A DNA stretch of 23,005 nucleotides from the IMG/VR virus record IMGVR_UViG_3300047667_001391, one strand, 5' to 3'. How positions within the stretch are numbered: the stretch's first letter is position 1; each line of letters starts with the position of its first letter. Both the position numbers and the translations under genes were made by a program. Origin of the DNA: a virus (taxonomy: Duplodnaviria > Heunggongvirae > Uroviricota > Caudoviricetes). Shown in pieces: positions 3,071 through 12,765 of this stretch. The notes below the pieces were generated by a model that saw only the letters and a program-made list of their open reading frames with translations, was not told where the DNA came from and made no database searches.

Positions 3071-3571
3071 ATGCAAAATAAATTAAAAATCGCTTCAGAT
3101 TTGGCCGTAAAATTAGGCGCGAACATTAACTTACTTGAGTTACGCGCAGAATCACAAACACTAACACCACACAATACATTAATTACCACATTTTACTATA
3201 ATGATGAATTGTTTGTACACTCCTACTTATATATCAATACTGGTTATTTTGGTACATGTCTGCGCGTAGGCGAAGAACAAGAGGATATAGCGGCATCTGG
3301 TACTATAGAATCTGGTACTATAGAAGCGGCATCTGGTACATCTGGTACTACAGAAACAGTTGATTGGGACTCATTACCAGAGATGGTGACTATTTGGGTT
3401 TACAAGAGCTTGTGGGCAACGGATGGTAAGACATTGGAACGGGTTGCGCATAAATTCGGTGAGTGGTATAGATTAGAAATTGGAGTGCCAGCATCTGGCT
3501 GTAAAAAAATTACATACATGGTACATGAGTCAAGGGTAGATAAAATAATCAAAGCTGGCAAGATTGGATAG
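3071..3571 (+). CDS. hypothetical protein (166 aa) with Ser-Gly-Thr repeat linker
   Basis: Closely packed ORF with internal AASGTIESGTIEAASGTSGTTE. Confidence 0.8.
   Translation: MQNKLKIASDLAVKLGANINLLELRAESQTLTPHNTLITTFYYNDELFVHSYLYINTGYFGTCLRVGEEQEDIAASGTIESGTIEAASGTSGTTETVDWDSLPEMVTIWVYKSLWATDGKTLERVAHKFGEWYRLEIGVPASGCKKITYMVHESRVDKIIKAGKIG
3290..3355 (+). repeat. short in-frame tandem repeats (TCTGGTAC x4)
   Basis: gcggcatctggtactatagaa / tctggtactatagaa / gcggcatctggtaca / tctggtactacagaa. Confidence 0.85.
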
Positions 3572-3851
3572 ATTTCCGTTAATTGAATTAATAGATGCAT
3601 TAGATGATGATTTATGCAATACTCCTCTTGTCGTCAAGGCGATGCCAGCAGAAGGCGAACGAAAATTGTGTTTTTTTCGAGGAGAATGGATAGTGCTTCA
3701 GGTTGATCTTGAGTCCCCAACATTTGAAGAAAACTTTATGCCGTTTTTGTATTGGCGGGAACCGTTTTCGGATACACTTTGCATTGAACACCATGACGTG
3801 TCAACATGGGTAGACTTACCCGAAATACCAACAGAAGAGATAACATTATGA
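3564..3851 (+). CDS. hypothetical protein (95 aa), weak DUF551-like C-terminus
   Basis: Overlaps both neighbours. C-terminal DVSTWVDLPEIP resembles the VTHWxxLPxxP motif. Confidence 0.7.
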   Translation: MDRFPLIELIDALDDDLCNTPLVVKAMPAEGERKLCFFRGEWIVLQVDLESPTFEENFMPFLYWREPFSDTLCIEHHDVSTWVDLPEIPTEEITL

Positions 3852-4913: not shown

Positions 4914-5255
4914 ATGAGTCTAAAGACTGCAATAGAACAAGAATGCAAGAACTGCACATATGACCAATCGTCTGACGGTAGCTGGAGACAGCAAATCAAA
5001 GGGTGTTGTGGCAGTAAGTGTGAATTGTACAAAGTCCGTCCGTTACCAATTGGGGATAGACATGAAATTCTTTCTAGTCGCCGCAAAGCTGTCGATGCTC
5101 AATGCAAGGCCTGTATATACGATGTGGGTGATTTAGATGCAGTGGGTACATGGAGACAACAAGTTCGAGATTGTAAGTCTACTGGGTGTGGCATATATAA
5201 AGAAAGACCAATGCCTATCTCCAGCAATGAAATACAAATAGTGGAGTTACACTAA
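4914..5255 (+). CDS. Cys-rich protein with two tandem putative Zn-binding domains
   Basis: Two copies of AxxxxCKxCxYD...GxWRQQxxxCxxxxCxxYKxRPxP. RBS AGGA. Confidence 0.82.
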   Translation: MSLKTAIEQECKNCTYDQSSDGSWRQQIKGCCGSKCELYKVRPLPIGDRHEILSSRRKAVDAQCKACIYDVGDLDAVGTWRQQVRDCKSTGCGIYKERPMPISSNEIQIVELH

Positions 5256-6661
5256 TGTCACTTGTTTATGAAGCAATAAAAAGTTTAACTGCCGCCAAGG
5301 GCGCAAATAATAAATTACTTATATTGCGCGAAGAGCTAAGCACACTACAAAGTAAAGCATTAATGGAAATTGTCATTTATACATATGACAATATGAGAAG
5401 TTACCATGTATCCAACATCATAGAAGAGCCATGTAGTTTTGCTGGCAGTATATTTGATGATGTAACCACGAAGAACTATGCACTGACTGACGTGCTAAAA
5501 TACCTTAGATATCTAAACGAAAAGGGTAGCGCAAACAGCGAAGATAAGAGAATGCTCGGTAAAATTAAGGCTGGTCTATCTCATGAAAATAAGACAGTCA
5601 TGGACCTAATCATCAGAAGAGATTTACGTTGCGGCCTCGGCCTTAAAAGTTTCCGTAAGGTGTGGGGCCAAGGATTCCTACCTGACATGAGTTATGCGCT
5701 GATGGCCTCATTCAATGAAAAAAAGGTAAAGAAGTCCATCAACTTTAAAGTGGGTGCATTTAGTCAATTAAAGTCTGATGGCAAACGTAGTATATTAACA
5801 TGTAGAAATCGTTCGTTTGTATCTCGCTCACGTAATGGGATACCAAACGGTCAAGTTGACCAGATTACCGAAATGGCTAAGCAATTTAAAATTGCCGGAG
5901 ACTTTGACCTAGATGGTGAGCTAGTAGTATTAGACGAAAATGGCGATATTTTGCCACGAACCACTGGCAATGGCATTGTAGCTAAAGTAGCGGCAGGGTC
6001 TGCATCTAAAGATGAATTAGCTAGGGTTAGATATGTAGTTTGGGACTTAATCTTACATGACGAAGAACCAATGGTGTACGAAGAACGTTTTGATATGCTA
6101 AAAAAAGAACTTGCTCGTCTATTTCTTAATGGTTACCCAGAAGAAAGTATAATATTAACGGATAGTAAATTTGTATACTCACTGAAGGAAGCAAAAGATC
6201 ATTATCGTGAGCTAGTTAAATCAGGCAAAGAAGGTACAATTTTAAAGGACAGAAGCAGTTTATGGACGTGTGGTGATAGCGATAGCTGCCGAGAAGTTAA
6301 TGGCTTCAAATTCAAAGAATTATTAGAGGGTGACTTCGAGATTACTGGTTGGTATTATGGAAAGAAAGGCACAAAGTACGAAAATGCTATTGGTGGCCTA
6401 GAATGTAAGTCATCTTGTGGGCAGATAGTGTTTAATGTCGGTAGTGGTCTAACGGACGATGTTAGATTCATGGATGACCCAGACAAACTAATAGCAACTA
6501 TAGTCGAGTGTTTGTATAATGCACGAACGATGGTCGAAGGCAGGGGGACTTGGTCGTTGTTCTTACCGCGTGTAACTGAGTTTAGGACGGATAAGTCGGT
6601 TGCTGATGACTTAGATAAAATAATCAAAGCTGAAGAAGCTTATAGAAATTTGGAGGAATAA
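5255..6661 (+). CDS. lig: ATP-dependent DNA ligase (T4 gp30-like)
   Basis: Motif I KSDGKR, III DLDGELV, IIIa YVVWDLI, IV EGTILK, V KFK, OB-fold FNVGSG, VI LFLPRVTEFRTDK. Confidence 0.97.
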   Translation: MSLVYEAIKSLTAAKGANNKLLILREELSTLQSKALMEIVIYTYDNMRSYHVSNIIEEPCSFAGSIFDDVTTKNYALTDVLKYLRYLNEKGSANSEDKRMLGKIKAGLSHENKTVMDLIIRRDLRCGLGLKSFRKVWGQGFLPDMSYALMASFNEKKVKKSINFKVGAFSQLKSDGKRSILTCRNRSFVSRSRNGIPNGQVDQITEMAKQFKIAGDFDLDGELVVLDENGDILPRTTGNGIVAKVAAGSASKDELARVRYVVWDLILHDEEPMVYEERFDMLKKELARLFLNGYPEESIILTDSKFVYSLKEAKDHYRELVKSGKEGTILKDRSSLWTCGDSDSCREVNGFKFKELLEGDFEITGWYYGKKGTKYENAIGGLECKSSCGQIVFNVGSGLTDDVRFMDDPDKLIATIVECLYNARTMVEGRGTWSLFLPRVTEFRTDKSVADDLDKIIKAEEAYRNLEE

Positions 6662-6663
6662 TC

Positions 6664-6915
6664 ATGTCAATAAAAACAGCAGTGCTATCAATAATCTCGG
6701 ACGTTCTGTATATCGCACCTAGCTTTAATCCAGAACAACAAATAGTTGATGACTTGGGTGCCGATGAGATTGATATATTAAATATAGTTACGGAACTAGA
6801 AAATCATTTTGATGTTGTAATATTAGATAAACAAATTTTTGAAAGTATGCGAGCTATGCATTTAGTTGGGGTAATTGAAGATTTAGTCGACGAAAAAAAT
6901 AACAGTCGTTCCTAA
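6664..6915 (+). CDS. acyl carrier protein-like protein lacking the phosphopantetheine Ser
   Basis: Acidic 83-aa protein with DDLGADEIDILNIVTELENHFDVVI versus the ACP consensus DLGADSLDxxELxMxLEEEF. Confidence 0.8.
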   Translation: MSIKTAVLSIISDVLYIAPSFNPEQQIVDDLGADEIDILNIVTELENHFDVVILDKQIFESMRAMHLVGVIEDLVDEKNNSRS

Positions 6916-7092
6916 TTAAGCTCTTGATAAATTAGGTGTATGTATGCATGCATGCACCGTGTTGTTTTAAGGAGGGAATGGATAACTACCGGAAATTTAC
7001 GGTATATGTCATATTATGAAGCCATGCGTAATATGAATAGGTTTAATAATGGGGAATGATCACCCCGTAACATTTAACATTAGGAAAAAATA

Positions 7093-8091
7093 ATGGCTAA
7101 ACTTCGAAAACTTTTTAAAGATGATGAAATTCTGGACTCCATAGCAGCAACAAAAAGTGATGGGGCCGCCGGAAGAAAGTTATCCGAATTAGGTCGTGGG
7201 AAAATATCAAAACAGTTGATGCGCTATTGGAGACGTCAACTGACTGAGATAACAAAAAAAGATGGGACGCCATATTCGGGATCTGGTAAATTAGATAAGA
7301 AAATTCAGTTAGAAGAAGTGAAATTACGTACACCGAGTCAATCGGACGATGACCGGACAACAGTAGTTACTTATGATGACACAAGAATACTTAATATACC
7401 AGACCAGCATGCACCGTACCAGCACCCAGATGCACTAGATTTCTTGATGGCAGTCAAAAAAGAAATTGAGCCTACAAGAATAGTAAATTTGGGAGATGAG
7501 ACGGACGGACACGGATTATCGATGCATGACTCAGATCCTAACCTAGACTCAGCTGGTGTTGAGCTGGTTAGGGCTAGAGAGTGGCTACAATCACTCGAAG
7601 AAGAATTTCCAATTATGGATATATGTCACAGTAACCACGGCAGCCTAATTTATCGTAGAGCATTTAAATTTGGTATACCAGCTCAGTACATAAAATCATA
7701 TAGAGAAATAATTTTTCCGGATGGAAGTGGCCAAGGTTGGGACTGGAAAGGTCGACATAGAGCAGTATTACCGAACGGCGAAGATGTTATTTTTCAACAT
7801 CAATCTGCTGGTGATACTCTGATTAACGCAGGGCATGAAAGGGCTAGTATCGTAGAGGGACATGAACACGGTAAATTTGAAATACAATACCGTAAATCTA
7901 CCAATGCGCTATACTGGACTATCATATCTGGTTGTTTGATTGACCCCGATGCCATGGCGTTTGCGTATGGTAAATTGTTCCCAAAAAGACCAATTTTGGG
8001 CTGTTCCGTCATCATCGATTCAATACCTAGGTTAATACCCATGGTCTTGGATAGACGAGGCAGATGGATACGAACACTTAGCGGTTTTTAA
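7093..8091 (+). CDS. calcineurin-like metallophosphoesterase with basic N-terminal (HTH-like) extension
   Basis: Motifs DQH (DxH), GDETD (GDxxD), SNH (GNH-like), FQH and GHEH (GHxH). Confidence 0.9.
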   Translation: MAKLRKLFKDDEILDSIAATKSDGAAGRKLSELGRGKISKQLMRYWRRQLTEITKKDGTPYSGSGKLDKKIQLEEVKLRTPSQSDDDRTTVVTYDDTRILNIPDQHAPYQHPDALDFLMAVKKEIEPTRIVNLGDETDGHGLSMHDSDPNLDSAGVELVRAREWLQSLEEEFPIMDICHSNHGSLIYRRAFKFGIPAQYIKSYREIIFPDGSGQGWDWKGRHRAVLPNGEDVIFQHQSAGDTLINAGHERASIVEGHEHGKFEIQYRKSTNALYWTIISGCLIDPDAMAFAYGKLFPKRPILGCSVIIDSIPRLIPMVLDRRGRWIRTLSGF

Positions 8092-8164: not shown

Positions 8165-8202
8165 GTACTCACTCAAATAAACAACTAGATACGGGAAATA
8201 CA

Positions 8203-8568
8203 ATGGCACAATTATTAAAACGGAGAGTGACAATGGATATAAAGGCACAATTATTAGAACAAGTGGCAATGCTTGAACGTTACATCAAAGACGGTTCTTG
8301 TAATGACAACTCACGTGGATTATGTGATAATGTGTTACTTGACTTTGAGGAAAGCACTGTTTACTTTTACTGGACTGATGTATTTGGGAGTTGGTCACAA
8401 TTCAGGGATGATTCGAATTCGACTTTTCCTATTGAAGGGGATTGGTTAAATTATCACGAAAATGATTTAAAGCATGATAGAAGAACTATATGGGGTAATC
8501 TTCGTTTATCATTAGCCAAGCATTGTTTAGAACATACACAAAAAGTGTTGGCAGAACTAAATGAATAA
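8203..8568 (+). CDS. hypothetical protein (121 aa; alternative start 8233)
   Basis: ORF downstream of the promoter. RBS-like GGGA before 8203 and GGAG before 8233. Confidence 0.78.
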   Translation: MAQLLKRRVTMDIKAQLLEQVAMLERYIKDGSCNDNSRGLCDNVLLDFEESTVYFYWTDVFGSWSQFRDDSNSTFPIEGDWLNYHENDLKHDRRTIWGNLRLSLAKHCLEHTQKVLAELNE

Positions 8569-8761
8569 TAAAATGTGCGAAACCATTGAGAAAGTATCGC
8601 CTATGGGACTGAGTAATATTAACTACTCTAGATATGGCACAATAACGAATGTAACAATAACGTGGATTAGATATACCCCGAAACTAAATAGTAAACGGGG
8701 GCGTTTTGGGTTACGTAATCGTAATAGAAAAGTATGTGTCCTTAAATTTGTTTTTGACTAA
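8561..8761 (+). CDS. hypothetical basic protein (66 aa)
   Basis: Overlap-coupled to both neighbours. Confidence 0.65.
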   Translation: MNNKMCETIEKVSPMGLSNINYSRYGTITNVTITWIRYTPKLNSKRGRFGLRNRNRKVCVLKFVFD

Positions 8762-8946
8762 TGACAAACTCTCAACTAAAGAAAATGAAGGCCAGAGAAT
8801 TTAATCTACGACGCGATGAGGTTCTGGCTTATCAAATTGATAGGAAACTTTTTCCTCCAATTGAACTACCACGCACTGCATCAGAAGAGGCCATCAGGCA
8901 TAAATTAATGACTTATCTTGCATTTGGCTATGGATTTATTAATTAA
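8761..8946 (+). CDS. hypothetical protein (61 aa)
   Basis: TAATG stop/start overlap. Confidence 0.68.
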   Translation: MTNSQLKKMKAREFNLRRDEVLAYQIDRKLFPPIELPRTASEEAIRHKLMTYLAFGYGFIN

Positions 8947-12183: not shown

Positions 12184-12765
12184 CTACTCGACTGATATAA
12201 CTTTATAGTAAAAACCCTCAACCACAATAGTTGCAGCTCCAGCTGATTTAAGCCTAAGTCTTGCACTGTTATTAACAGTATCTTGTGAAATCATAGGCAG
12301 TTCAAAAAATGCAGTTACTGTCACATCGTTTGTTGCAGTCACATAGTAATCATGTGTAAGATTTAACGTATACGGCGAAATCGAACCTTCTGCTAAATCA
12401 ATTACTAAATTAAGTTCTTGTGCCGCCGCGTGATCAACAACTAAATCAACTCTAAAATTAACAATGTCATTAAGTTTTAAGCTACTAAAATTAAAAGAGT
12501 TAGTTACTGGATTCCATATATCATCTTTCCCCCTAGGATTATATGAGTAAGTCCTTGAGCCTTCAGAATTGTTGGTCAAAAAGGTTGTGTTTGATCCAGC
12601 GACGTGAGTTATTTTAGTTCCACCGTCTGCTGGATTGGTCGCAGTGTCATTAGAATAAAACCAATATACTTGGTGAATACTCTCCGCTAAAGTTTTGATT
12701 TGGTTAATTATAGTTGCAATATCACCGCCTTCAGTTACATTACATACTATATCTTCAATTGGCAT
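12184..12765 (-). CDS. hypothetical, probably virion-associated beta-rich protein (193 aa)
   Basis: Beta-strand-rich composition (DIWNPVTNSFNFSSLKLNDIVNFRVDL). Located in the late operon. Confidence 0.72.
   Translation of the reverse strand: MPIEDIVCNVTEGGDIATIINQIKTLAESIHQVYWFYSNDTATNPADGGTKITHVAGSNTTFLTNNSEGSRTYSYNPRGKDDIWNPVTNSFNFSSLKLNDIVNFRVDLVVDHAAAQELNLVIDLAEGSISPYTLNLTHDYYVTATNDVTVTAFFELPMISQDTVNNSARLRLKSAGAATIVVEGFYYKVISVE

Follow-up and report, generated by a model that had tools for sequence, protein, structure and literature searches.

Acyl carrier proteins (ACPs) are among the most connected proteins of bacteria. An ACP without its attachment serine receives no phosphopantetheine and hence carries no acyl chain, and enzymes of the AcpS and Sfp types act on that one serine position. 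Apo-ACP inhibits glycerol-3-phosphate acyltransferase more than holo-ACP does, with a stop in growth, and SpoT reportedly fails to bind the apo form (PMC3896788). AcpP carrying the S36T substitution loses IscS binding (PMC13343975), and MukB shows the same ATPase stimulation with apo- as with holo-AcpP (PMC8602292). In the literature on phage acyl carrier proteins, phage ACPs appear as auxiliary genes; neither there nor in work on serine-to-glutamate mimics did we find a study of serine-less phage ACPs. ACP or auxiliary genes are reportedly listed in the genome papers on Erythrobacter phage R6L and Vibrio phage R16F. One phage-borne protein annotated “acyl carrier protein”, MAM_092 of Serratia phage phiMAM1 (Ackermannviridae), is very acidic, has ~80–90 aa and carries Glu at the serine position (FDELD).

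The ACP-like gene described here lies on a 23,005-nucleotide stretch of phage DNA from an uncultured marine phage (IMG/VR record IMGVR_UViG_3300047667_001391), which we refer to as the window. The plus strand encodes an exonuclease, four DUF8296 paralogues, a holin-like protein, an ATP-dependent DNA ligase, the ACP-like protein, and a metallophosphoesterase, and the minus strand encodes lysis and tail genes. The upstream neighbour is the ligase (5255–6661, plus strand; Pfam DNA_ligase_A_M, 5e-19; PHROG 114, 6e-89), whose best cultured relatives, from Vibrio phage henriette 12B8 and phages akin to it, are 36% identical. The downstream neighbour is the metallophosphoesterase (7093–8091, plus strand; PHROG 221, 5.5e-76), a protein with homologues in 642 phage records, including Klebsiella, Escherichia, Pectobacterium, and Vibrio phages of ~40–45 kb. 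A link between this enzyme and the ACP-like gene, with the former as a PptH-like phosphopantetheine hydrolase, was considered and appears unsupported; the enzyme belongs to a family spread over those 642 records and itself has no sequence match in the PDB. Megablast of the whole window against 50,697 phage records gave no match, and tblastn of the ACP-like protein against the same records gave nothing at E 1e-3 and only weak ACP-like matches at E 0.05 to 10. The ligase–ACP synteny is absent from henriette-like Vibrio phages and from Ackermannviridae, the gene neighbourhood in phiMAM1 being unlike that of the window.

The ACP-like gene (6664–6915, plus strand, from the list of open reading frames) encodes 83 aa with a net charge of -11 and a pI of 4.1, 16 residues being Asp or Glu versus five Lys or Arg. 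Its start codon follows the ligase stop (6659–6661) by 2 nt, a directly readable Shine–Dalgarno sequence, GGAGG (6652–6656, plus strand), precedes the ATG by 7 nt, and a consensus scan placed a terminator-like hairpin with a T-run at 6935–6968 (plus strand; hairpin part 6935–6958), at the end of what would be an orf113–ligase–ACP unit. Relatives differ there in bases and length but have hairpin-compatible sequence at the corresponding position, as judged from an alignment by eye. The GGAGG, the 2-nt spacing from the ligase, and the hairpin are expression signals of the kind implied by the operonic expression noted in the initial annotation.

By homology and predicted fold, the protein is a member of the PP-binding superfamily. 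It matches Pfam PF00550 with 28.7 bits (E 1.6e-6, residues 6–61) against a gathering cut-off of 20.8, and also PHROG 5934 and 4154, both labelled “acyl carrier protein” and composed of PP-binding proteins that are likewise found on phages. In a phmmer search of the PDB its best sequence matches were bacterial ACPs, among them the Helicobacter ACP 8jfg_G (E 4.6e-6). These matches agree with the initial annotation, which had called the gene a phage ACP homologue with Glu in place of the phosphopantetheine-bearing Ser. The motif reads DDLGADEIDILNIVTELENHFDVVI, and alignment to solved ACPs and to orthologues places Glu35 (GAG, 6766–6768, plus strand) at that position, exactly paired with the Ser of DLGADSLD in 8jfg_G.

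The residue that defines a holo-ACP as a carrier is thus absent, and, judged from the sequence, the window protein is not a functional carrier ACP. Canonical loading, which the initial annotation had likewise discounted, appears excluded by the replacement of the attachment serine through a multi-base change. The protein has seven further serines (positions 2, 9, 12, 20, 61, 81, and 83), so it might in principle have stayed a carrier through modification of a different residue or through an unusual transferase of the phage. We consider this highly improbable, as none of the seven opens helix II within a D-S-L-type motif, the known transferases are confined to the canonical position, and searches of the 23-kb window, part of a genome whose longest recorded contig is 87 kb, detected no phosphopantetheinyl transferase, nor any enzyme that uses acyl-ACP.

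A single-sequence AF2 model was uninformative (pLDDT 47). With an alignment of 64 homologous sequences AF2 gave a pLDDT of 92.7 and a pTM of 0.80, with helices at 3–15, 35–49, and 64–81 and a short turn at 55–57, and in Foldseek this model superposed on ACPs, AcpP of Escherichia coli among them, at TM scores of 0.79–0.90 and rmsd values of 1.4–1.5 Å. The ACP fold presupposed in the initial annotation is therefore recovered by structure prediction. The protein is predicted to have the four-helix fold of ACPs, with helix II beginning at the attachment position, Glu35 being its first residue.

Among known systems the closest is bacterial type II AcpP (PF00550; TIGR00517; PDB 1l0i, 4etw_B, and 8jfg_G), above all in its unmodified apo form; it is homologous, shares the modelled fold, and is similar in size and strong negative charge. 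It has in common with the window protein the pattern DLGAD-x-(I/L)D in which helix II begins at x. The two differ in that x is the cofactor serine in AcpP and Glu in the window protein, and in that the window gene is phage-borne and sits beside DNA-metabolism genes rather than in a fab operon. Identity to AcpP-type proteins is ~27–30% in the Foldseek matches, and the NCBIfam TIGR00517 score is 32.5 bits, less than half the equivalog cut-off of 70.45, which the Ser-bearing orthologues (36–45 bits) also miss. On these scores the window protein is not an AcpP equivalog, and with so low an identity and score it does not closely copy any ACP of a host. The acidic helix II, initially described as intact, is so only in part: aligned to the numbering of AcpP, D34, D37, and E46 are retained, but N, N, and H occupy positions 40, 47, and 48. 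The acidic docking face is thus partly replaced (N40, N47, H48, and K56), which together with the low identity makes close mimicry of host AcpP doubtful.

The close family is small. A word-indexed search of 5.8 billion proteins returned only four clusters including that of the window protein (P0001), the others being 86% (P0002), 82% (P0003), and 54% (P0004) identical to it. The orthologues, which belong to related uncultured marine phages, are 83–84 aa long, P0002 and P0003 come from TARA and other metagenomes, and all four clusters lie between the same DNA ligase and metallophosphoesterase genes. P0002, P0003, and P0004 all keep Ser in DS(I/L)D, encoded by AGC, and P0003 differs from the window protein further in retaining an acidic DDD loop like that of canonical ACPs. 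Since all three other clusters carry Ser, we infer that Ser is ancestral and Glu recent. The window allele is accordingly a recent derivative of a small ACP-like gene that is specific to phages, and Glu is one allele among Ser-bearing orthologues, not a fixed state of the family.

GAG is at least two changes from any Ser codon and three from the AGC found in all four orthologous alleles, and the initial annotation had argued from its codon distance that a single-base error was unlikely. The same Glu allele is present on two further contigs from separate runs (SRR28417390 and SRR28417389), with 100% DNA identity over the ACP-like gene in both and over the flanking genes in L008, the one contig in which these were compared. 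Recovery of an identical allele from separate runs excludes errors of sequencing or assembly, which in any case do not typically span three bases; with no point found in its favour, an artefact has a negligible probability. Further alleles were sought by IMG/VR and metagenome scans, which yielded no close relative, and by a back-translated pattern of the Glu helix II, which matched nothing in IMG/VR, so that the Glu haplotypes found number one. Among the four alleles it has the lowest Pfam PP-binding score, 28.7 bits versus 33–49.

The way in which the serine codon changed bears on whether the Glu allele is simply decaying. Between the window and its relative L001, 24 of 249 coding sites differ in the ACP-like gene, and nine of these differences sit in three runs of adjacent bases. 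Besides the serine codon, adjacent changes cluster at codons 26–27 (6739–6744, plus strand), which alignments show as CAA ATA (Gln-Ile) in the window and ACG CTA (Thr-Leu) in relatives. Under random placement, the probability that the serine codon is fully substituted is 0.0007 for the 24 pairwise differences and 0.0001 for the 14 changes assigned to the window branch with L095 as outgroup; the probability of at least two fully substituted codons, the other being codon 26, is 0.0015 and 0.00006, respectively. Because all three bases of the serine codon have changed, random drift is improbable (P ~0.0007). The codon seems to have undergone repeated changes, one multi-base event, or replacement by a short recombination patch from a Glu-bearing allele, and none of these three routes amounts to a nonfunctional gene simply decaying under neutrality.

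The rest of the window branch is less decisive. It comprises approximately six protein-changing codon events (E4K, N/K20S, T26Q, L27I, S35E, and V65M) and two or three silent ones, giving a protein-changing to silent ratio of ~0.65–1 compared with ~0.3 on the sister stem, both based on a handful of sites. This ratio fits a mixture of positive and purifying selection or relaxed constraint alike. A relaxed or null allele, in which the Ser orthologues are true carriers loaded by a host transferase and the Glu allele has lost that function and persists because the gene is dispensable to this lineage or in this habitat, is the main rival reading but somewhat unlikely; it would account for the elevated ratio, for the retention of DS(I/L)D by the closest orthologues, and for the low family score and single known haplotype of the Glu allele. 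It accords poorly with three changes falling in the one critical codon, with the arrival at the same acidic residue that other conserved serine-less phage ACP-like proteins have, and with the state of the reading frame, which is free of stops and frameshifts and of changes that would break a helix. L27I and V65M, which make up two of the six protein-changing events, retain a hydrophobic residue, and E4K, N/K20S, and T26Q alter polar or charged ones. Phages, moreover, usually delete useless DNA. Decay relative to Ser-bearing relatives, raised in the initial annotation as a possible objection, is therefore countered by the intact frame and the codon statistics and not by the branch ratio, which suits relaxed selection equally.

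The ACP-like gene is the fastest-changing gene of its block. Protein identity between the window and L095 is 85% for the ligase and 97% for the phosphoesterase, as opposed to 53% for the ACP-like protein. The near-identical phages L001 and L006 differ at 14 of 252 sites inside the gene and at six of 6,226 outside it (odds ratio 61, P 4e-16), and all 14 differences fall in a patch spanning codons 36–61, which covers helix II, the loop, and the short helix III (6769–6845 in window-equivalent positions, plus strand). The dN/dS in this patch is ~2.7, from few sites. Both of these TARA/ENA contigs carry Ser-type alleles, which differ from each other (VVILDKQIFKN vs. VNISDDDFFES), and within the patch L001 is closer to the window than to its near-twin L006, which suggests short-patch recombination inside the gene. 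Silent divergence of the ACP-like gene between the window and L001 is 0.18, compared with 0.5–0.85 for the neighbours, and both ends of the gene are identical across alleles, a combination that also suggests within-gene recombination.

The variable segment corresponds to the partner-docking face of ACPs, and rapid local change there is what we would expect of a binding protein under shifting selection. The extreme local diversity between near-identical phages, and a divergence much faster than that of the neighbours, would equally be expected of an escape allele, whereby the ACP-like protein of the phage, perhaps in its holo form, is recognized by a host defence or enzyme, the loss of serine and the variable patch are the means of evasion, and the protein's own job is another or a minor one. 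The data do not separate such escape from selection on a binding surface. To our knowledge, no defence system senses phage ACP-like proteins, and none that senses ACP appears in the literature on phage acyl carrier proteins and serine-to-glutamate mimics. We regard escape as improbable.

Glu at the serine position is found in other proteins, and the tabulation of this residue called for in the initial annotation shows that it recurs. Among ACP-like open reading frames on IMG/VR viral contigs, 76 of 80 have Ser and four have Glu, in a sample biased by a query that itself carries Glu and so favours Glu-bearing matches, and by one search pattern that admitted only S or E. The four Glu proteins form three unrelated groups; two are 73% identical to each other and both retain Glu. 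The genes of this pair (L058:6856-9012 and L076) directly follow an AAA_24 (Sak4-like) ATPase gene, with an HNH endonuclease nearby, and are a second case of a Glu-type ACP-like gene placed in a DNA-metabolism module. The phiMAM1 protein adds a further instance. The window protein, which would work in a similar way, matches it only at E 0.4 at database level, which makes common descent of the Glu state with Ackermannviridae unlikely, the pairwise comparison giving 35% identity over 51 aa (E 2e-8) from helix II to helix IV. In all, viral ACP-like proteins appear to have acquired Glu independently in at least four lineages besides that of the window.

Several of the 103 matches in a representative library of 1.8 billion proteins also lack the serine, mostly with Glu in its place, again in a search favoured by the query's own Glu, and some of the serine-less ones carry signal peptides. 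P0009, P0013, P0034, and P0105 look cellular, with N-terminal signal or lipoprotein-like sequences, and each has between one and three ACP-like domains in which another residue stands for the serine (GADELD, GADESD, GGDELD, and GADWYD). ACP domains without the serine are thus also part of multi-domain proteins that are apparently secreted.

Taken with the known behaviour of apo-ACP, our best reading, held tentatively, is that the window protein is a cofactor-independent binding protein or a competitor of host ACP. A stable, strongly acidic protein of ACP fold would be translated as the last cistron of the orf113–ligase–ACP unit. With Glu in place of the sole attachment-motif serine, AcpS-type transferases of the host could not load it and it would carry no acyl chain. 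It would instead bind without the cofactor, blocking the site at which ACP docks on a partner tolerant of the unmodified form, such as the PlsB acyltransferase, AcpS, a MukB-type SMC protein, or some phage or defence protein, and so compete like an apo-ACP that can never be converted. Selection may favour Glu or Asp at this position because an acidic N-terminus of helix II stabilizes the helix and keeps a negative charge at the phosphate site. An acidic residue there is structurally favourable in itself, so Glu need not mean phosphate mimicry. SpoT, one of the targets named in the initial annotation, is poorly supported given its reported failure to bind apo-ACP (PMC3896788). As SpoT and IscS are reported to need the modified Ser36 or the cofactor, partners of the PlsB, MukB, or AcpS type, or other phage or defence proteins, are more plausible.

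A cofactor-independent binder is supported by ACP homology and fold, by Glu35 within an intact reading frame with expression signals, by the presence of the allele in two extra runs, and by a fully substituted serine codon accompanied by a second such codon. Fast divergence relative to the neighbours, variability of the helix II–III patch, the recurrence of Glu in viral proteins, and a 23-kb window in which neither a transferase nor an acyl-ACP enzyme was detected point the same way, and there is precedent in the action of apo-ACP on glycerol-3-phosphate acyltransferase and in the acceptance of apo-AcpP by MukB. Against this reading, a single Glu haplotype makes selection after the change unmeasurable, and the branch ratio of ~0.65–1, the lowest Pfam score, and the partial loss of the acidic docking surface weigh in the other direction. 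The adjacent-base changes could also represent one short recombination patch rather than repeated selection, and the Glu counts are biased by the S/E pattern and the Glu of the query. On balance, the decoy role initially suggested for this candidate ACP mimic is plausible from its sequence.

A more ambitious proposal, which we regard as unlikely, is that Ser-to-Glu replacement in ACPs is a recurrent, convergent phage strategy. Its product, permanently barred from loading and imitating the phosphate charge, would compete for a host protein on which ACP docks, be it PlsB, AcpS, an SMC protein of the MukB type, or a defence that depends on ACP. The present phage group would then have been caught in transition, its natural Ser and Glu alleles and diversifying docking surface reflecting an ongoing arms race. 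More generally, a phage protein that copies the fold of so highly connected a protein but can never be loaded would give phages a new kind of means for host takeover or counter-defence, and would serve as a natural test of which ACP partners work without the cofactor. Database labels such as “acyl carrier protein” and “auxiliary metabolic gene” are misleading for serine-less forms. New here is a natural allelic series at one locus, consisting of the Glu allele, two Ser alleles (Ser-A and Ser-B), and the 54% identical Ser orthologue, in which revertant controls already exist and which shows how fast a phage population can lose the serine. The weakness of the case lies in its one Glu haplotype and in its origin from an uncultured phage.

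Several other features of the window deserve mention. The intergenic leader at 6916–7092, downstream of the ACP-like gene and upstream of the phosphoesterase gene, is ~90% identical over four phage lineages and is better conserved than much of the surrounding coding DNA. It contains the terminator-like hairpin, followed by AAGGAGGG and then by two more hairpins (TACCG..CGGTA near 6988–7006 and GGGG..CCCC near 7051–7068). A search of Rfam with this leader returned no family, and it may be a promoter or leader of the phosphoesterase gene.

The four tandem paralogues at 1333–2772 all match PHROG 18067, the Pfam assignment to DUF8296 coming from the related locus L006. On the minus strand, a 192-aa protein (12184–12765) matches PHROG 2725, “acetyl-CoA acetyltransferase”, at E 4e-11, a label that is probably unreliable as the protein has no Pfam or NCBIfam support. 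Compared with L001 and L006, the block is otherwise 80–95% identical to the window, with replacements or indels (identity 15–50%) at ~3300–3640 and from ~8180 (8180–8900), and these two stretches are mosaic boundaries of accessory genes.
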